Assembly (NCBI GenBank): GCA_011174845.1 | Contig: DUEW01000080.1 | Location: 1,536 to 65,535, forward strand | Length of the DNA: 64,000 bases | From: Anaerolineae bacterium | GTDB lineage: Bacteria; Chloroflexota; Anaerolineae; Anaerolineales; E44-bin32 | Direction: 5' to 3' | In this document: piece after piece, positions 25,103-36,650 of the stretch | Numbering within the stretch: position 1 is the first letter of the stretch | Layout of the letters: each line of letters begins with the position of its first letter | Position numbers and translations under genes: made by a program | The notes under the pieces: generated by a model | The model's database searches: none | What the model was told of the DNA's origin: nothing | The model's input: only the letters and a program-made list of their open reading frames with translations

Positions 25103-25552
25103 TCAGGACAAGCGGAGGGAAGTTTGCCAGGAGGCAAACCCTGCCAGGCAAGCAGGGATGGAGATGAGAATCGGCTCAAAGGTTCGTGTTTCCAAAATCG
25201 TGCTGACACCCCAAAGAACGACGAGAGCTAACGCAACGGTGAAATAACGGTGACCGAAAGTCCGTCGCCAAATCATCGATGGGAGCCACCTTGGCTGAAT
25301 GATACTTAGTATCGTTATGGTAAATCCTATGCTGACCAGGCTGATACGACCGGAGATCGGCCAATCTGGGTGGCCAAGCAACAGAATCGATGTGGGGAGG
25401 AAGAAAAGCAATCCGTGAGCAATTGCCAATTCCAAATAGGGGTGTCGATGGAGCTTGGAAAAGGCTCGCCTGAGCAGTATGCCCATGACGGCACTAAATC
25501 CAATATAGAGGGTGATGGTACTCATCCAAAAGGATGCTTGCTGGAAGACCAC
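25103..25552 (-). CDS. Hypothetical membrane protein (about 5 TM)
   Basis: 149-aa hydrophobic ORF with no recognisable motif. Confidence 0.45.
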   Translation of the reverse strand: MVFQQASFWMSTITLYIGFSAVMGILLRRAFSKLHRHPYLELAIAHGLLFFLPTSILLLGHPDWPISGRISLVSIGFTITILSIIQPRWLPSMIWRRTFGHRYFTVALALVVLWGVSTILETRTFEPILISIPACLAGFASWQTSLRLS

Positions 25553-25794
25553 GGTTTCTCTTGTCCTTTTTTAGGTTTGAGTTATGAGGGGTGCAAGTTG
25601 TATGCCCGAGGAAGTAATAAAAAGGGGATTTTAGCCCATTTTTGAGTTTCGCAAACCAAGTTTCAATAAACCATAGCTATAGATGCGCCTTGAGTATGCA
25701 TTCGACGCACACAATGATGGCATACATGTGAAGCCTTAAACCAGGGTAAGAATCCAAACTGGCAGTAACTCTTTCCCCATGTATGATCACGATA

Positions 25795-26904
25795 TCAAGT
25801 ACCGGGTGCTGGGGTATCAGAAGGCAATGGGGTTGGTGTCGCAGAGGGGGTGGGCGGAGCAGGTGTTGGCTCTTCGGATGGGGTGCCTCCTGGTGTAGGC
25901 GTATCAGTAGGTGTACGGGTTACCGGTGGTGGTGCGAGGGCCGTCTCGCAGATATGAGCCGCTTCGGTCGCAGTTGGGAAACGCACGTCCCACTCCCATC
26001 TTGACAAGGATCTGTCATACTGCTCCATTGCAGCACAAGGCTCGGAAGCCGCCATCAATTGATCGCCGAAATACCAGGCCGCCTCGCCAAACTTGTAGCA
26101 GGAATCAATCGTGGCGCCTTGCGCGCAAAGCGTCTCAAACAAATCAGCTGCTCGTTCCCAGTTCAAACCGAAGTAGCTATTGGCGAACAGATATTGTTCC
26201 GCCAGTGTCCGCCGGTAAGAGGCATCCCGATCCAGCGGTCCAAAACGCTCGGCTAGGCTGAGATCGTAAAGTCCTTCCTCCATAAAACCTTGAGCGATGA
26301 GTTCCATACCCCGATTGCGCAGGGCAATGTACATCATCCCGTCGGCTTCCACTGAGCGGTAGGTGGGATCCTTAGCCCGTAAGACCAACAGTTTGTTTAT
26401 CACCGTGGTCCAATCACCCTCGGCGAGCGCTGTTCGAGCGTGATCGAACAGTTCCTCCGGTGGGGAGGGATCGGGGGTCATGGTGGGTTCAAAGGTGGAG
26501 GTAATGGTGGGTACATTGAGAACTACGTAGATTTGGGTGAGGATCTCCTGGATACCGGGGAAGGAGGGATCATAGCGTGCGATGGCCTCGAAACGCTGCC
26601 TGGCTAACTCGTATTGTCCTGCGTTCAGGTCCTGGATTCCTAGTTCAAATTGCTCCTGTAGGAATTGTGCAACTTGATCTTGTTGACGTGTCTGCTGTGC
26701 GCTCTGCCCTTGGAGGAAAGCGATACCTCCTACCACCAAGACGACCAACAGGTAAAAAAGAACAAACCAGGGCCATCGTAGCCGCTTAGGACGGTCGTTT
26801 GGTGATTCCATAACTTCCGTGGACAGGATGGATTGTGGAACACTTGCCGTAGGTTGGGTATCTTCGTGTTCCTTTGGGGATTGGCTTGAGAGCATGGAGG
26901 GCAT
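25795..26904 (-). CDS. Membrane-anchored TPR-like protein with a Pro/Thr-rich C-terminal tail
   Basis: 369-aa ORF. Single TM WPWFVLFYLLVVLVVGGIAFL, helical-repeat body, and the tail PPVTRTPTDTPTPGGTPSEEPTPAPPTPSATPTPLPSDTPAPGT. Confidence 0.6.
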   Translation of the reverse strand: MPSMLSSQSPKEHEDTQPTASVPQSILSTEVMESPNDRPKRLRWPWFVLFYLLVVLVVGGIAFLQGQSAQQTRQQDQVAQFLQEQFELGIQDLNAGQYELARQRFEAIARYDPSFPGIQEILTQIYVVLNVPTITSTFEPTMTPDPSPPEELFDHARTALAEGDWTTVINKLLVLRAKDPTYRSVEADGMMYIALRNRGMELIAQGFMEEGLYDLSLAERFGPLDRDASYRRTLAEQYLFANSYFGLNWERAADLFETLCAQGATIDSCYKFGEAAWYFGDQLMAASEPCAAMEQYDRSLSRWEWDVRFPTATEAAHICETALAPPPVTRTPTDTPTPGGTPSEEPTPAPPTPSATPTPLPSDTPAPGT

Positions 26905-28428: not shown

Positions 28429-30093
28429 ATGCGGCTAAAAGGTGAAAGATTACGTTTGAGCCGTACTGGAAAACATTCGAATCCCTGGCGGATGTTGGTA
28501 TATATCATCATCATCGCCGGGGGAGTGTTGATCCTTCGTTTGGAACAGATTGGGGAGGTGCAGCCATTCTTTCTACCTACACCAGGTCCAACGCGTGGTG
28601 CAGGATCTTACGCTGAGGAGGCGGAGGTTCACTTTTTCGCTGGAGATCTTCAGGCAGCTATAGATGCCTACCAGGCTGCCACTGTAATGGAACCTGGCAA
28701 CGCAGAACTGTTTACCAAACTCGCCCGCCTCCAAACTTACTCAAGCAGTCTGTTGACGACTCTCGAAGACCGACGGGCACGTTTGGCAGAGGCCAGAGAT
28801 ACCATAGACCACGCGGTTGAGATCAGGTCCGATAGCGCCACCGTACACGCGATTCGCGCCCTGGTCTATGATTGGTCCGCAACCGCTGAAGTCAAGGATA
28901 CGCTCGTGGTTGGAGATGTCGTCAGGGTGCAGGCTACTCTAGACGATACTGGAGTTATGGTCGCCCGGATCATCGAATCAGAGGACACCATCGAACCCGG
29001 AAGCAGCGAAGGGATGGTAGAAGAGGGAACAACGTTCATCTTTTCCGGAATGGTGGAGGAGAAGGATCAAGATGAGTGGACGGTGGGAGGGCGGACGATT
29101 GTGGTAACCCCTCTGACCTTGATCCGAAATCCAAACCGCAGGGATGAGTTCCTTACCGAAGCTGAAAATGCCGCGAATCGGGCTTCTACTCTCGATCCAG
29201 GTAACATCCTCGCACAAGCCTTCAAAGCTGAGGTTCAGACCGACCAGGGGGAATTTGCCCTGGCGCTCGATAATGCCCAGCAAGCCGCAGAGGCAATGGA
29301 GAGCATTGGTGGTCAGTACGAGTACGCCATGGACGTCCATCGCGTTTACGCGACTGTACTGGAGAATCACGCGTATTACCTGCAGGCGATCAATGAATAC
29401 CAGAAAGCGGTAGAAATCAGCCCCAATCTGACATTCCTTTACCTGCAAATCGGTGCCAATTACCGGGAACTTCAGGATATCGAAACAGCTCTGTATTACT
29501 TTGATAAAGCGGTCAAGATCAACGAACAACTCGGCGTTTTGGACCCGACGCCCTATCTGGCCATTGGAAGGACCTACCAATGGGAGGGAGAGTTCTTTAT
29601 CTCTGCCATCAACATCGAACGCGCGCTAAAGATTGACCACGGAAACCCCGATATTTACGGTCGTCTCGGCATTGTCTATTTTATGGCTCGCAATTACGAG
29701 AGCGCGATCGACATCTTGAAGTGTGCCGTTCGCGGTTGCAGCGTCGAAGAAAATCGTGAGCGTTTCTGCAAATTTGTCTATCGCGTGGACGATCCTGAGT
29801 GTGACGAAGCGCAGGAGAAAATCAACGAGGCAGTGCCGGGTCTTGAGCTCGGACCGAAAAGCGTCGAGTATTATTACACCTACGGCTCCGTGCTGGCTGC
29901 CTTTTATGGTCATCCGGACTATCCCGGTATTTGCATCGAGGCCGAAGAAATCTTCACTGAACTGATGACCCAGTATAGCAACGATGCGCTCGTTGTAGCT
30001 ATTGTGGAACAAGGGCGAGCGATTTGTGAAGGTCCGGTTATCTCCCCAGAAGTCACCCCTGAACCAACCCCTACCCTCAGCGAATCCCCTTGA
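28429..30093 (+). CDS. Membrane-anchored tetratricopeptide-repeat protein with an inserted beta-rich segment
   Basis: 554-aa ORF. TM MLVYIIIIAGGVLILRL, a PTPGPTRG linker, and TPR units. A non-TPR insert occurs around VVGDVVRVQATLDDTGVMVARIIES ... EWTVGGRTIVVTPLT. Tail is SPEVTPEPTPTLSESP. Confidence 0.7.
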   Translation: MRLKGERLRLSRTGKHSNPWRMLVYIIIIAGGVLILRLEQIGEVQPFFLPTPGPTRGAGSYAEEAEVHFFAGDLQAAIDAYQAATVMEPGNAELFTKLARLQTYSSSLLTTLEDRRARLAEARDTIDHAVEIRSDSATVHAIRALVYDWSATAEVKDTLVVGDVVRVQATLDDTGVMVARIIESEDTIEPGSSEGMVEEGTTFIFSGMVEEKDQDEWTVGGRTIVVTPLTLIRNPNRRDEFLTEAENAANRASTLDPGNILAQAFKAEVQTDQGEFALALDNAQQAAEAMESIGGQYEYAMDVHRVYATVLENHAYYLQAINEYQKAVEISPNLTFLYLQIGANYRELQDIETALYYFDKAVKINEQLGVLDPTPYLAIGRTYQWEGEFFISAINIERALKIDHGNPDIYGRLGIVYFMARNYESAIDILKCAVRGCSVEENRERFCKFVYRVDDPECDEAQEKINEAVPGLELGPKSVEYYYTYGSVLAAFYGHPDYPGICIEAEEIFTELMTQYSNDALVVAIVEQGRAICEGPVISPEVTPEPTPTLSESP

Positions 30094-30129
30094 CATCCTC
30101 ACCCAGATTGGGTAAACTTGCGTAGCAAT

Positions 30130-30156
30130 TTAGCACTCTCAGTCAGCGAGTGCTAA
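30130..30156. promoter_or_regulatory. CIRCE operator (HrcA binding site) upstream of groES
   Basis: Perfect consensus TTAGCACTC-N9-GAGTGCTAA read directly. The palindrome extends to GCAATTTAGCACTC...GAGTGCTAAATTGC (30125-30161). Located 52 nt upstream of the groES ATG. Confidence 0.95.
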
Positions 30157-30207
30157 ATTGCTGTGCATGTTCGAACATCATGAATCCATTGTAGGAGGAG
30201 GACCCGC

Positions 30208-30504
30208 ATGTCATTAAAAATTAAACCTATGGCCGACCGCTTGCTTGTCAAGCCCCTCGAGGAAGAGGAGGTGACGCCGGGCGGTATCGTGCTGCCAGAG
30301 ACGGCGAAGTAGAAGCCGCAGAAGGGCGAGGTTTTAGCAGTGGGACCGGGTGCCCGCGATGATGAAGGCAATCGCATCGCCATGGACGTTTCCGTTGGGG
30401 ACAAGGTCCTCTTTGCTAAGTATGGAGGGACGGAAATTAAAATGGACGGCGACAAGCTGCTGATCCTACGCGAGAGTGACATTCTCGCCATTCTCGAGGA
30501 TTAG
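30208..30504 (+). pseudogene. groES: Co-chaperonin GroES interrupted by an in-frame TAG at codon 35 (30310-30312)
   Basis: Not in the supplied ORF track because it is split. Translation from ATG 30208 (RBS GGAGGAGG) gives [34 protein letters not shown][67 protein letters not shown]. The stop replaces the Glu of the conserved AKEKPQ motif (GAG to TAG is a single-base difference). Identity as groES is firm. Whether the stop is real is open. Confidence 0.85.
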
Positions 30505-30570
30505 CGTTGCCTGGAACGAGATCATGATTTCTCGAAAGAATAATAAATTATGAATAGGAGCGAATGAGCA

Positions 30571-32202
30571 ATGACTGCTAAGCAAATCGCATTTTCAGAG
30601 GATGCCCGTAGGCGTCTCAAAGCCGGTGTTGATGTACTGGCCAGAGCCGTGGCCACCACGCTGGGACCTAAAGGACGCAACGTGGCCCTTGATCGCAAGT
30701 TCGGTTCACCCACGATTACCCATGATGGGGTAACTGTGGCCAAGGAAATTGAATTGGAAGACCCATACGAGAACATGGGTGCACAGCTGCTTAAAGAGGC
30801 GGCCACAAAAACCAATGACATCGCTGGTGATGGCACGACGACCTCAACCGTATTGGCCCATGCCATCGTGACCGATGGCCTGAAGAGCCTGGCGGCGGGT
30901 TCCAATCCCATGCTGCTCAAGCGCGGGATCGAGAAGGCTGCCAAGGCGGTAGCGGAGGCCATCGCCAAGCAGGCGATCGAAGTGACGACCAAGGAAGAAA
31001 TCGCCGCCGTCGCAGCCATTTCTGCCCAGGATAGAGAGATCGGTGAATTGATCGCCGAAGTGATGGACAAAGTTGGCAAAGACGGCGTGATCACGGTCGA
31101 GGAATCCAAGGGCTTGGAATTCGAGACGGAATATGTCGAAGGAATGCAGTTCGACCGTGGATACATCTCGGCATACTTCGTCACCGACCCCGAGAACATG
31201 GAAGCTGTGGTCGAGGAACCCTATATCCTGCTTCATGACAAGAAGATCTCGGCGGCAACCGATATTGTCCCCATCTTGGAAAAGCTGGTCCAGGTGGGCA
31301 AACGCGAGCTAGTTCTGATCTCCGAAGATATCGATGGCGAGGCTTTAGCGACCTTGGTCCTCAACAAGCTACGAGGCATGCTCAACGTGGTAGCGGTCAA
31401 AGCCCCCGGTTTTGGCGATAGGCGCAAGGCCATGCTTCAGGATATGGCCATCCTCACCGGTGGCACAGTGATCACCGAAGAATTGGGACGCAAACTCGAG
31501 ACGGTCACCATTAATGATCTAGGTAAAGCAGGTAAAGTGGTGGTCACGAAGGATGACACCACAATCATCGAGGGCGCGGGTGAAGCCGATCGCATCAAGG
31601 GCCGCATTGAAGAGATCAAAGTTGAGATCGATCGCTCAACCAGCGATTACGATAAAGAGAAGCTCCAAGAACGATTGGCGAAGCTTGCTGGTGGCGTGGC
31701 CGTGATTGGGGTTGGCGCGGCTACAGAAACGGAGCTCAAGGAGAAGAAGCACCGTGTCGAGGACGCCCTCTCCGCTACACGAGCGGCGGTCGAGGAAGGG
31801 ATCGTCCCTGGTGGTGGCGTGGCGTTGCTCAACGTTTTAGATGCCATCAAGAAGCTGAAGATGGACGACGAAGACGCGAACATTGGCATTAACATTGTGC
31901 GCAATTCGCTTGTGAAGCCGATGAACGGCATAGTAGAGAATGCCGGCAAAGACGGCGCCGTAGTCATCGAGAACGTGCGCCGCAAGCACATCGAGGAGAA
32001 AAATAAAAACATCGGCTTTGATGTCCTCGAGGAAGAGTATGTGGACATGATAGAGGCTGGGATCATCGACCCCGCAAAGGTTACCAAAGGAGCGTTGGAA
32101 AACGCCGCTTCTATCGCGGCCATGATCTTGACAACCGAGGCGTTGATCACCGATGTGCCTCAGGAGGAGAGGCCACCTGCTCCGCCGATGCCTGAGTATT
32201 AG
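30571..32202 (+). CDS. groEL: Chaperonin GroEL (60 kDa)
   Basis: 543-aa ORF. Motifs [44 protein letters not shown] and [17 protein letters not shown]. Lies downstream of groES. Confidence 0.97.
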
Positions 32203-32229
32203 AACACGCCTGTTTGATTGCACTTGACA

Positions 32230-32257
32230 GGGGCTGTCTGAAAGGGCAGCCCCTTTT
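32230..32257 (+). terminator. Intrinsic terminator of groESL
   Basis: Stem GGGGCTG / CAGCCCC (32230-32253) followed by TTTT. Located 28 nt after the groEL stop. Confidence 0.7.
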
Positions 32258-32466
32258 CCATTGATCGATGTCTGGCAAGAGGGGGGATGCATTTAACTGG
32301 GATATCCATATGCAACCTTGTGGGTCACTGGACGTATATAACGATGTAGGTAGAACCTAATTTAAGACATGAGGTGATTCTTTTCAGTTGTCTGTCAGTG
32401 TGATGTCACGATGGCTGACCCGAGTTGTGTATAAATGGACCAGGATATTAGGAGGTAAGTATCAAG

Positions 32467-32658
32467 ATGAACGATACACGCTTATTGAGACGCTCACGCA
32501 GTGATCGGATGATGGCTGGTGTGTGCGGAGGAATGGGGAAGTTCTTCGGGATAGATCCGGTTTGGTTCAGATTAGGGTTCGTGATCGCTGCTTTGCCCGG
32601 AGGCGTTCCAGGGATTGTGGCTTACTTGATCTGTTGGATCGTTATTCCGGAGGAATAA
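32467..32658 (+). CDS. PspC-domain small membrane protein
   Basis: 63-aa ORF with RBS AGGAGG. RSRSDRMMAGVCGGMGKFFGIDPVWFRLGFVIAAL matches the PspC domain pattern. Confidence 0.8.
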   Translation: MNDTRLLRRSRSDRMMAGVCGGMGKFFGIDPVWFRLGFVIAALPGGVPGIVAYLICWIVIPEE

Positions 32659-32785
32659 ACCCGATCCTCAATCAGCGCTCTTTTAGCTAACACGCTTTGT
32701 GATTCTATGGTGGAGTGAAGGGCATCGGTTGAGATGCCTTCGAGATCAAATCATTTGATCGATGGGAGAAATCTACCCTTATCCT

Positions 32786-33170
32786 ATCATTCTGAGCGTC
32801 CATCCTTACCAAAGGTGTAGAGGCAATTCATGCCGTCTCGCACCGGCGTGCCGCCGGTTTCACGGCACGAACGGTGAATTGCCCCTACGATTTGGCTCCC
32901 TTCAGCGAGTTCAGGACGAGTGTTAAGCGCGAGGAATCCCTATGGTTCTACAACATCAACAGTTTCATCATAGGGATTCCTCGCTCGCGGAGCCTGTCCT
33001 GAGCCCCTCAGCTTCGCTCGGGACCTTTGGCTCCGCCGAATGGCTCGCTCGAATGACACAAGAGAGTATGTCATTCTGAGCGCCGTTAGGCGCGACGATA
33101 TCGTACCCGAAGGGTGAGAATCCCTGTGATGTTGCTTCTAATTTCGCATCATCACAGGAATTCTTCGTCG
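32786..33170. repeat. Cluster of four consecutive palindromic repeat modules (includes a family B unit)
   Basis: Hairpins read directly. (1) 32817-32888: GTAGAGGCAATTCA...TGAATTGCCCCTAC. (2) 32929-32984: perfect 16-bp stem GCGAGGAATCCCTATG/CATAGGGATTCCTCGC. (3) 32996-33024: GTCCTGAGC...GCTCGGGAC, followed by CTTTGGCTCCGCCGAATGG, homologous to 54800-54858. (4) About 33115-33166: core CCTGTGATG/CATCACAGG. TCATTCTGAGCG is repeated at 32787 and 33071. Confidence 0.8.
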
Positions 33171-33280: not shown

Positions 33281-34207
33281 TCATCCCCCGATCGTTACCT
33301 TGAAACCGTGGGCTTGGATGATCTCCCGGAGCTGCTCGAGTTGATCTCGATCGGGCGGCTCCAATCTCTCTAGTTGGTACTCTCTGCCCAGCATTTGATA
33401 CTTGCCCATGCCCAATTTATGATATGGCAGGATATCGATTTGCTTCACCGATTCGAGCTTCTCGATGAAGTTCGCCATTTCGTTTATTTCCCCTGTGGTG
33501 TCGTTGATCCCTGGAAGAAGCGGTAAACGGATAATCAGGGGAATCCCTGCGTCGGACAACTTCTTCGCGTTCTGCATAATAACTTCGTTCGATGTACCCG
33601 TAAATTGTATGTGCTTATCGTTATTCACAAGTTTAATATCGTATAGCACGAGATCTACCACATCCATCAACGATTGTAGATTTTCCCAAGGCACGTTGCC
33701 GCAAGTATCTAATGTGACGTGGATTTGATCCCCTTTCAATTCCTGGGCGACCCTTCGCACGAAACGATGCTGCAAGGTGGGTTCACCACCTGAAAATGTG
33801 ACACCCCCACCAGATACTTCATAAAATATTCGATCTTTCATGAGTTCTGCTACGAGCTCGTCAACGGACATCGATCGACCGATTAACTCATATGCACCGG
33901 CAGGACAAACCTCTACACAAATGCCACAAGCAGTGCACACAGCGTGGTTGATGACATACTCGTCATGATCTTCGTAGATCGCATCTTCAGGGCATGTGAA
34001 GAAACATTCTCCGCAGTGAATGCATACCTTATGGTCTTTAAGGATCTCTTGGTGGGGGTTGATCAACTCTGGATTACAACACCACTCACATCGCATGGAA
34101 CAACCTTTGATGAAGACGGTCGTTCGGATGCCAGGACCATCCTTAATCGAATATCTTTGAATCCTTGATACGAGCCCGTGCTCGAGATCTTGTTCAGAAC
34201 CCGGCAT
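33281..34207 (-). CDS. Glycyl-radical enzyme activating protein (radical SAM, with two auxiliary 4Fe-4S motifs)
   Basis: 308-aa ORF. Motifs RYSIKDGPGIRTTVFIKGCSMRCEWCCNPE (CxxxCxxC), CIHCGECFFTCP and CTACGICVEVCP. Overlaps the 3-prime end of the GRE gene by 14 nt. Confidence 0.9.
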   Translation of the reverse strand: MPGSEQDLEHGLVSRIQRYSIKDGPGIRTTVFIKGCSMRCEWCCNPELINPHQEILKDHKVCIHCGECFFTCPEDAIYEDHDEYVINHAVCTACGICVEVCPAGAYELIGRSMSVDELVAELMKDRIFYEVSGGGVTFSGGEPTLQHRFVRRVAQELKGDQIHVTLDTCGNVPWENLQSLMDVVDLVLYDIKLVNNDKHIQFTGTSNEVIMQNAKKLSDAGIPLIIRLPLLPGINDTTGEINEMANFIEKLESVKQIDILPYHKLGMGKYQMLGREYQLERLEPPDRDQLEQLREIIQAHGFKVTIGG

Positions 34208-36650
34208 ATTCTGTTCTTTTGATGATGTCTTCTTGTACTTCGGGCATTAATGAAGTGAAGAGGGCGCAGTAACCGGCGACCCTGACCATCAGATTGGGAT
34301 ACTTGTGTGGGTTTTCCTTGGCATCGATGAGGATGTCTAGATCGATGACGTTAAACTGGACGTGAAAACCACCGATCTGACGGAAAGCCTCGAGGAAGTA
34401 CACAAATTTGTCCAGGTTATCGTCACCTTCTAACAAACCTGGGCTAAATTTCATGTTCAACAGTTGCCCGCCGGCCATCTTCGTATTTGGTAGCTTTGAG
34501 ATCGATTTTGCTGCGGCCGTTGGACCTTCTCTATCCGCTCCGCGGCACATCGAAGCGCCTTCGTTCAATGGCTCTCCTGCCAACCTGCCATCTGGCGTGG
34601 CCCCGACATCCATCCCATAGGGGACATTAGAAGAGATGTTGGAAGTTGACATGGTGTAGCCGCATCCGATCGGACCTCTGCCGTAGCGCTCATTTTGATA
34701 TCCGGGCAAGAGCTCTAGATAGGATTCGTACACTGAGACCACGATCTCATCCACATAATCTTCATCGTTGCCGAATTTTGGGGCTGATTTGGCCATCTTC
34801 TGTATCTTGCGTGCTTGAACTCCCTGCCAATTCTCAGCCATTGCCTGCTTGAGTTCGTCTAGGGTCAGGACTTCATCGTCGAAAACTAATTTCTTGATCG
34901 CGGCCAAGGAATCGCCTACAGTTGTAGGTCCGACCGTGGAGTGGCTGATGTAATCATAGGTCGCGCCTCCGTCTTTGAGGGTTGAACCTCGTTCAAGACA
35001 ATCGTCCACGAGAGAAGATGCGAAGGGATCCTTGTCGTGCTTTTGGAGTGATCGATCGCAGATTCGATCGCTCTCGACAGCCAGATCGGTGTAAAACTTC
35101 AAGAATTTTTTCCAGGCCTTAAATAAATCATCGTAGGAATAGAATTCTGCCTGTTGATCCTTCTCGCCGTCGACGCTGATGAGCTGGAGCCCGGTCTTGG
35201 GATCGACGCCGTTGTTCAACACCAGTTCGAGGATCTTTCCCATGTTAATGTAGGTCATACCTGTCGCTCGATGTGTCCACTTTCCTGGAATGCCGACCTC
35301 CACACACCCGATGGAGGCGTAGTCGCGAGCCACCTTTACAGGTATGTCAATGTAGCTTAATGCCTTGATCACCGTCTCGTCTCCAAACAAGGAGGGCATT
35401 CCGAAGCCTTTTCGGATAAGTGTGGCGGATTCAACGAGCAGTCGTCTCGGGCTACCTTCCCAGTAGCGAACCGAGAAGTTGGGCTCGGGCAATCGGACCT
35501 GATCGACGGCTTGGATGCAGAGGTAAGAGAGTGAATTGGTCCCGTCTGTGCCGTCGGGTTTGATGCCGCCGACCATGAGGTTTGAATAGAGAGGATAGCC
35601 GACTCCGAATTCGGTATGATCCCATGGCCTTACCTTGTTTAACACATTCAGCTTAATGAAAAAGAGCGACAAGAGTTCTAACGCTTCTTCCTGCCCCAGT
35701 TTCCCTTCTTCGATATCAGCCTGATAGAAGGGGCACATGTATTGATCAAACCTGCCAAACGAGAAGGAATGGCCGTTGCTTTCGATCATCATGATCAGGT
35801 GGCAGAAATACACCATTTGTAGGGCTTCGTGGAATGATGTCGGAGCGTTCTCCGGGATCCGGTCGCAGATGTGAGCGATGGTTTCCAGCTCCTGTCTTCT
35901 TCTCGCATCCTTCTCCTCAACGGCTCGTTTTCTTGCCTCATCGGCATATCTCTTTGCGAACTTAATCGAGGCATTGAGTGCGATGACCGCCGCTTGGTAG
36001 AACTCCTTCTTGCTTTCTGCAGTTGGATCGGATTTATCGAGCTCGGAAAGCTTTTTTTCTGCCTCATCGATGTACCATCCCAATCCCTTGGTTAGGATCT
36101 TCTTGTGGTTAGGGATGATGTGACCATCGCCTGACATACTGATTCCGCCGCGATGAATGACACCCTGTCTTTCGGCAAGCTCATTGGTTGGGGTCATAGT
36201 CCGGGAGACTTCATCCTGGTGTGTTTTCCCTTTCCAATACGCATGAATGCTCTTAAGACTTTCTTTTGTCCTATTGCTTATCGCGAATACATCCCCTGGG
36301 CGTTTATCGAAGGTGTCCAATTCCTCGATGATCCATTCGATCGAATATTCGGGGAAGATCGGCGCTGCTCTTCCCCTGCTGGCTTGATTCCCCACGATCA
36401 ATTGATCGTCTTCGATATAGATCGACATTTCACTCAAGATTCTGTTCAACGCTTTTGCTCTCCTGAGGATCATCGGAAGCCCTTCGGTCTCTTTGTAGGC
36501 CTCGGTGATGATCGCGGCTCTCTCGGGACAGATCATAGGCGTGAGGCGCATCAGGTCCTCTCGAACCTTCGCAACCCGTTTCAGTCTCTTAGTCTCGCGA
36601 TCACGCACAAGAGCAGGTTGAGCGTTCATAACATTTATCCTCGCGTCCAT
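34194..36650 (-). CDS. Glycyl radical enzyme of the dehydratase/lyase (GCVE) clade, substrate unknown
   Basis: 818-aa ORF. C-terminal glycyl radical motif RVAGYCALF and thiyl loop SIGCVEVG (Cys-x-Glu as in glycerol dehydratase/CutC/HypD, not the CC of PFL). ESNGHSFSFGRFDQYMCPFY and the N-terminal ERAAIITEAYKETEGLPMILRRAKAL resemble B12-independent diol dehydratases. Confidence 0.85.
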   Translation of the reverse strand: MDARINVMNAQPALVRDRETKRLKRVAKVREDLMRLTPMICPERAAIITEAYKETEGLPMILRRAKALNRILSEMSIYIEDDQLIVGNQASRGRAAPIFPEYSIEWIIEELDTFDKRPGDVFAISNRTKESLKSIHAYWKGKTHQDEVSRTMTPTNELAERQGVIHRGGISMSGDGHIIPNHKKILTKGLGWYIDEAEKKLSELDKSDPTAESKKEFYQAAVIALNASIKFAKRYADEARKRAVEEKDARRRQELETIAHICDRIPENAPTSFHEALQMVYFCHLIMMIESNGHSFSFGRFDQYMCPFYQADIEEGKLGQEEALELLSLFFIKLNVLNKVRPWDHTEFGVGYPLYSNLMVGGIKPDGTDGTNSLSYLCIQAVDQVRLPEPNFSVRYWEGSPRRLLVESATLIRKGFGMPSLFGDETVIKALSYIDIPVKVARDYASIGCVEVGIPGKWTHRATGMTYINMGKILELVLNNGVDPKTGLQLISVDGEKDQQAEFYSYDDLFKAWKKFLKFYTDLAVESDRICDRSLQKHDKDPFASSLVDDCLERGSTLKDGGATYDYISHSTVGPTTVGDSLAAIKKLVFDDEVLTLDELKQAMAENWQGVQARKIQKMAKSAPKFGNDEDYVDEIVVSVYESYLELLPGYQNERYGRGPIGCGYTMSTSNISSNVPYGMDVGATPDGRLAGEPLNEGASMCRGADREGPTAAAKSISKLPNTKMAGGQLLNMKFSPGLLEGDDNLDKFVYFLEAFRQIGGFHVQFNVIDLDILIDAKENPHKYPNLMVRVAGYCALFTSLMPEVQEDIIKRTEYAGF

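Follow-up and report, generated by a model that had tools for sequence, protein, structure and literature searches.

The 64-kb stretch of DNA analysed here, which comes from an uncultured Anaerolineae bacterium and is referred to as the window, contains a groES-groEL operon with all the parts of a heat-shock locus and a single in-frame TAG at codon 35 of groES. The positions of the features are compiled in Table 1.

Table 1. Features of the groESL locus in the window
Feature	Position	Strand	Remarks
sigma-70-like promoter of groESL, TTGACA-17 nt-TAAACT	30090..30118	+	10/12 matches; kept in L081-L085
CIRCE operator, TTAGCACTC-N9-GAGTGCTAA	30130..30156	+	0 mismatches
groES ribosome-binding site (RBS), GGAGGAGG	30194..30201	+	GAGGAGG invariant in relatives
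groES (Cpn10) frame, 98 codons, broken at codon 35	30208..30504	+	PF00166
in-frame TAG, groES codon 35	30310..30312	+	T at 30310, G in every relative
groEL RBS, AGGAG, 10 nt before ATG	30556..30560	+	AATAGGAGCGAATGAGCAATG identical in L081-L085
groEL (Cpn60), intact, 543 aa, TAG-terminated	30571..32202	+	PF00118, 263 bits; HEY43825.1
terminator-like hairpin and T-rich tail after groEL	32229..32264	+	hairpin 32229-32254; 11-pair stem, 7 G-C pairs

The groESL locus and its interrupted frame

CIRCE denotes the inverted repeat to which HrcA binds in class I heat-shock operons. The match found ahead of groES is unique in the 64-kb window, while shuffled sequences gave an expectation of 0, and both of its arms are invariant in all seven aligned loci. 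The perfect operator and the ribosome-binding site that the preliminary description had reported were recovered at the positions given in Table 1. Beyond the operator itself, the palindrome comprises 5 additional bp on each side (GCAAT...ATTGC, 30125-30161), which are kept in the close relatives L081 to L085, while the locus L001 shows compensating changes (GCAAG...CTTGC). In the DNA alignment with the relatives, promoter, CIRCE, ribosome-binding site and coding sequence all line up. Judged by its sequence, the locus is to be regarded as an ordinary, functional CIRCE-groES-groEL operon of the class I heat-shock type. The assumption of a tight translational link between the two genes does not apply here, as groES and groEL are separated by a spacer of 66 nt and groEL is preceded by an AGGAG of its own, 10 nt ahead of its ATG.

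At the upstream border, the TGA stop codon (30091-30093) of the preceding gene, which encodes a TPR protein of 554 aa, lies inside the -35 hexamer TTGACA (30090-30095). The short ENA members in the cluster of this TPR protein (P0123-P0129) turned out to be unrelated peptides. At 33281-36650 on the minus strand, the gene of a glycyl-radical enzyme activating protein (HEY43827, 308 aa) overlaps the end of an 818-aa ORF by 14 nt; this ORF, located upstream on the same strand, presumably encodes the putative glycyl radical enzyme itself.

Translation of the groES frame from the ATG at 30208 to the terminal TAG at 30502-30504, where the product ends in ILED before the stop, confirmed that it is broken only by the TAG at 30310-30312 and comprises no frameshift on either side of this codon. 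With codon 35 read as Glu, the protein reaches 122.1 bits against the Cpn10 family PF00166 (cutoff of 21.1), and its residues 4-95 cover the profile positions 1-92 of 93. Apart from the stop it is therefore a full-length GroES, as had been described. As deposited, the frame is interrupted, since the TAG limits translation to 34 residues and lies inside the mobile loop, at the C-terminal end of which Glu35 is located. The alteration of codon 35 consists of a single substitution from GAG to TAG (G to T).

Exact-sequence look-ups identified the neighbouring proteins as NCBI entries HEY43823 to HEY43827 (locus tag G4O11_, "MAG TPA: Anaerolineae bacterium"). Since HEY43824 (TPR, upstream) and HEY43825 (GroEL) are consecutive accessions, the deposited annotation comprises no GroES protein. 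The missing record is consistent with a gene that was flagged or skipped because of its internal stop.

Behind the internal stop, a Shine-Dalgarno-like GAGG lies 8 nt before an in-frame GTG at 30340 (30328-30342), at which a C-terminal GroES fragment of 54 aa lacking the mobile loop could in principle be re-initiated. Since the coding sequence (KGEVLAV) already dictates these bases, the signal is probably meaningless.

Codon 35 and selection in related loci

For the comparison, one genome per species was scanned with the GroEL of the window, which yielded 80 Chloroflexota loci, mostly from Anaerolineae. All 74 loci covering the site encode Glu at codon 35, 49 of them by GAA and 25 by GAG. The preliminary description had placed the stop at a conserved Glu and had proposed a comparison with orthologous loci of close relatives; both the position and the single step from GAG to TAG are borne out by the alignment, in which the close relatives without exception show GAA or GAG. 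The contigs of the relatives are syntenic with the window in the order TPR, TPR, groES, groEL, pspC. L081 and L082 (about 90% DNA identity to the window) as well as L083 to L085 (about 80%) comprise GAG at codon 35, and the only peculiarity of the window at this codon is the T in place of G. The alignment of L081 with the window stops at about L081:10592, beyond which the neighbourhoods differ; an IS110-family transposase gene is found shortly downstream of pspC (L081:10926-11519).

A similar picture was obtained on the protein level. Many GroES proteins of 98 residues showed 93-99% identity to the window, the closest ones 97-99%, and nearly all of the best 120 matches listed were full-length with 98 residues. 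Glu35 was present in every GroES protein inspected among the matches of the protein search. In E. coli GroES, the equivalent of position 35 is presumably occupied by Ala, so that the site is not universally conserved. JGI proteins of 40 aa annotated as 'GroES', which are identical to the C-terminus of the window protein, were considered as products of truncated alleles and rejected; the one contig returned (L086) is cut by the contig end and not by a stop.

In comparison to L081, groES showed a dN/dS of 0.012 (Nei-Gojobori, with 20 synonymous differences and 1 non-synonymous difference), and in comparison to L083 a value of 0.016. Behind the stop, 11 synonymous and 0 non-synonymous differences to L081 were counted. 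Among the columns conserved to at least 97%, the GroES of the window departs at position 35 only, and its GroEL shows no deviation at the 187 columns conserved to at least 97% in 90 relatives. These values indicate an intense purifying selection on groES, in which no decay or relaxation is detectable. Since a signal of decay is missing in groES, the stop is either evolutionarily brand new or not real.

Meaning of TAG and search for recoding

Among the 41 large ORFs of the window, 18 end with TGA, 13 with TAA and 10 with TAG. The genes terminated by TAG include those of NuoG, NuoL, UppS, EF-Ts, GlpX, urocanase and GroEL, and most of the products have a Pfam match that extends to the C-terminus. 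At the ends of groES and groEL, the relatives show TGA or TAA in exactly the place of the terminal TAG. TAG is thus an ordinary terminator in this genome, and a genome-wide reassignment is unlikely, as had already been proposed on the basis of nuoG, nuoL and uppS. Neither an exclusion of TAG from termination nor its depletion at gene ends, as they would be expected for a recoded codon, can be seen in the window. An apparent further in-frame TAG in the gene at 25176-25919 on the minus strand was rejected; this gene is intact and matches its orthologue in L081.

The window contains no tRNA gene, and no match to an Rfam family was obtained for it. The conservation expected of a recoding site is likewise missing, as neither any of the 74 orthologous loci nor any close relative shows the stop. 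A scan of 241 million metagenome records for the degenerate site P-[D/E]-T-A-K-TAG-K-P-Q-x-G yielded a single match, a contig of an unrelated lineage (L091; JGI Ga0129297_10097673, 1-240). Its groES is intact except for a TAG at the same Glu codon (...GGIFLPDTAK*KPQKGTIVAVGPG..., the asterisk marking the TAG) and is followed by groEL. This record fits a sporadic error or mutation at a codon that is one step away from a stop, rather than a conserved recoding site.

The 38-mer of the window around codon 35, with N at 30310, had 0 exact matches in the metagenome collection, which thus supplied no contig of the same species. A set of about 15 billion predicted proteins contains neither of the two fragments (34 aa and 54 aa) to which the TAG allele would give rise. 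For the exact GroEL of the window and the 54-aa C-terminal fragment, no record was found in the contig index, which evidently omits the contig of the window. A search by tblastn revealed no second groES in the 64-kb window. The literature on groES pseudogenes and premature stops returned papers on endosymbionts and genome decay, none of them relevant to this case.

Same-strain contigs and origin of the T at 30310

The nearest GroES protein among the matches listed (P0005) is encoded on the ENA contig L090 from ERZ27275891. Over the 677 bp from 30091 to 30767, which span the promoter, CIRCE, the whole of groES, the spacer and the first 200 nt of groEL, this contig is identical to the window except for two positions. 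At 30310, the T of the window is replaced by G, resulting in GAG. At 30293 (L090:203), 17 nt upstream of the amber codon, the window shows T as do all relatives, while L090 shows G. The latter change converts CTG to CGG and introduces L29R into the conserved GGIVL of the mobile loop, where all other relatives comprise Leu (Ile in one case). Over 1003 bp (32038-33040), the window also shows 100% identity to L087, a further contig of that assembly. Since this identity includes intergenic DNA, the strain of the window is present in ERZ27275891. With an intact GAG allele on the same strain background in L090, the stop can at most be a polymorphism and is not fixed. Outside the identical regions, L090:678-2628 diverges by about 10% from 30768-32723 of the window, and the same holds true for L087:1-200 compared to 31839-32037. 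This mosaic structure suggests that related Anaerolineae populations co-occur in ERZ27275891 and that this assembly contains chimeric or recombinant contigs.

Since every relative, including the same-strain contig, comprises the normal codon, an artefact or a fleeting variant is the most likely origin of the T. The stop is thus most likely not a biological feature, and it is considered probable that the T at 30310 arose as an artefact of base calling or consensus building in the metagenome-assembled genome (MAG). The substitution and its uniqueness, the intact allele of the same strain and the lack of a decay or recoding signal are established, and we infer that the T represents such an artefact and not a real allele. 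It would constitute a lone G-to-T discrepancy in the metagenome-assembled consensus, which could originate from a sequencing or library-damage error or from a minority of the reads, whose path the assembler adopted where coverage was low. The true codon 35 of the organism would then be GAG (Glu), and GroES would be made normally.

The kind of the differences is in line with this explanation. Both differences between the window and L090 are radical coding changes (the stop and L29R) and G/T transversions, and none is synonymous. The natural differences between these lineages, in contrast, are overwhelmingly synonymous and consist of transitions to about 67%, while G/T and A/C together amount to only about 18-21%. 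The pattern therefore fits unselected noise rather than standing variation. In groES, stops are created by 13.5% of all possible G>T and 13.7% of all possible A>T changes, compared to 3.7% of all substitutions, so that these two classes are the most prone to produce a stop in this gene. Oxidative DNA damage during library preparation characteristically leaves G>T changes, and T>G miscalls adjoining GGC motifs are a known Illumina artefact; the change of L090 at 30293 follows directly after GGC on the opposite strand. The source of the window, a third-party-assembled (TPA) MAG, was also counted in favour of an artefact. Moreover, groES is essential in those bacteria in which this was tested, which makes it implausible a priori that a consensus genome would carry a groES without function.

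On the other hand, the T is not demonstrable as an error from the consensus sequence alone. The window is otherwise clean, with 0 deviations at the 187 columns of GroEL, an error-free overlap with L087 and no other broken gene noticed, and therefore the assembly is not generally error-prone. Wrong substitutions seldom reach the consensus of short-read assemblers, since these normally need to see a k-mer at least twice. If errors were spread uniformly, it would also be an odd coincidence that each of the only two assemblies of the strain has its own independent lesion in one 18-nt stretch of the mobile loop.

The main alternative is an explanation according to which the TAG is a real and very recent nonsense allele of groES that is not fixed and has not yet been purged by selection. 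Its carriers might survive because their genome comprises another co-chaperonin gene outside this locus, or via a low-level near-cognate readthrough of UAG-A, by which Gln, Tyr, Lys or Trp would be placed at position 35 of a full-length GroES. The T stands in the deposited consensus, and the surrounding assembly looks accurate. Because groEL has its own ribosome-binding site 66 nt downstream, a stop in groES need not abolish the synthesis of GroEL. The unrelated L091, in which groES-groEL is otherwise intact, comprises TAG at exactly the same Glu codon, which indicates that such alleles or errors recur sporadically. In addition, the L29R of L090 as another damaging change in the same loop could hint at a relaxed constraint on groES in this strain. 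However, a relaxation of selection is not detectable, the intact GAG occurs on an identical strain background, and no second groES is found within the 64 kb. The established essentiality of groES, the fact that both anomalies are G/T transversions where about 67% transitions would be natural, and the absence of fragments of the TAG allele from the 15 billion predicted proteins also speak against a real allele, which is altogether considered unlikely. Clearly more improbable is an extended form of this explanation, in which the amber codon is real in viable cells and the lesions of both assemblies reflect a genuine selection on, or relaxation of, the GroEL-binding loop, with GroES supplied by readthrough of UAG-A or by a second co-chaperonin. 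Phage pressure would be a possible cause of such lesions, since classical phage-resistance alleles of E. coli groES map to the mobile loop, and a replacement co-chaperonin could possibly be phage-derived.

A deliberate decoding of the amber codon, by programmed readthrough, an amber-suppressor tRNA or the insertion of pyrrolysine or another non-canonical amino acid, would also lead to a full-length GroES. The perfectly kept frame on both sides of the TAG is compatible with it, as is the A following the codon, UAG-A being a relatively leaky or suppressible context in E. coli, and one other metagenome contig (L091) shares the TAG. Nonetheless, the stop is confined to the window among the orthologous loci, the same strain comprises GAG, and TAG is the normal end of groES and groEL themselves. 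With neither a tRNA gene nor an Rfam element in the window, and with L091 as a single unrelated match in 241 million records that amounts to sporadic noise, this explanation is very improbable. Even less credit is given to the view that groES is an old paralogue in decay, which another groES or groESL copy has rendered redundant. Two or more chaperonin genes are found in many Chloroflexota, and NCBI lists no protein for this groES between HEY43824 and HEY43825. However, the dN/dS values of 0.012-0.016 and the lack of frameshifts and of non-synonymous changes behind the stop are opposed to any decay. Promoter, CIRCE, ribosome-binding site and groEL are intact and conserved, and the relatives carry an orthologous, intact groESL in the same syntenic place, between the TPR genes and pspC that also border the locus of the window. 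An old redundant paralogue is thus to be regarded as excluded, as the selection analysis effectively refutes it. The preliminary description had named an ordinary decaying paralogue as one variant, which is disfavoured by these data. Between its three options of a sequencing or consensus error, a recent tolerated nonsense mutation, and suppression or readthrough, it had made no choice; the intact GAG of the same strain and the lack of relaxed selection now favour the error, while suppression or readthrough finds no support from a stop that no relative shares and a window without tRNA genes.

If the stop were real and fixed, this would be notable, since a free-living bacterium would either lack a functional essential co-chaperonin or depend on amber readthrough. 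For practical purposes, the groES of this MAG should be taken to be intact. Where a highly conserved essential gene of a MAG shows a single in-frame stop, this is better treated as a quality flag than as biology as long as the reads are unchecked.

Compared to the CIRCE/HrcA-type groES-groEL operon of Bacillus subtilis and many other bacteria, the locus shows the same order of promoter, CIRCE, ribosome-binding site, groES, short spacer, groEL and terminator. In this layout, the sole difference to such a class I heat-shock operon is the T at 30310, which turns codon 35 into a stop. In relation to the intact operons of other Anaerolineae, the window is syntenic with a DNA identity of 75-91%. Amber mutants of essential genes in E. 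coli that are kept by suppression or readthrough resemble the present case in the one-step change from GAG to TAG and in the A after the stop, but here the window contains no suppressor tRNA, the stop is not conserved, and both the TAG allele and its expression are at most putative. A likeness also exists to the internal-stop 'pseudogenes' of MAGs, annotation artefacts that result from consensus base errors. While the window differs from these in being otherwise free of signs of poor base quality, it shares with them an essential gene that is perfectly conserved but for one substitution, the missing NCBI protein record and the intact allele in another assembly of the same strain.
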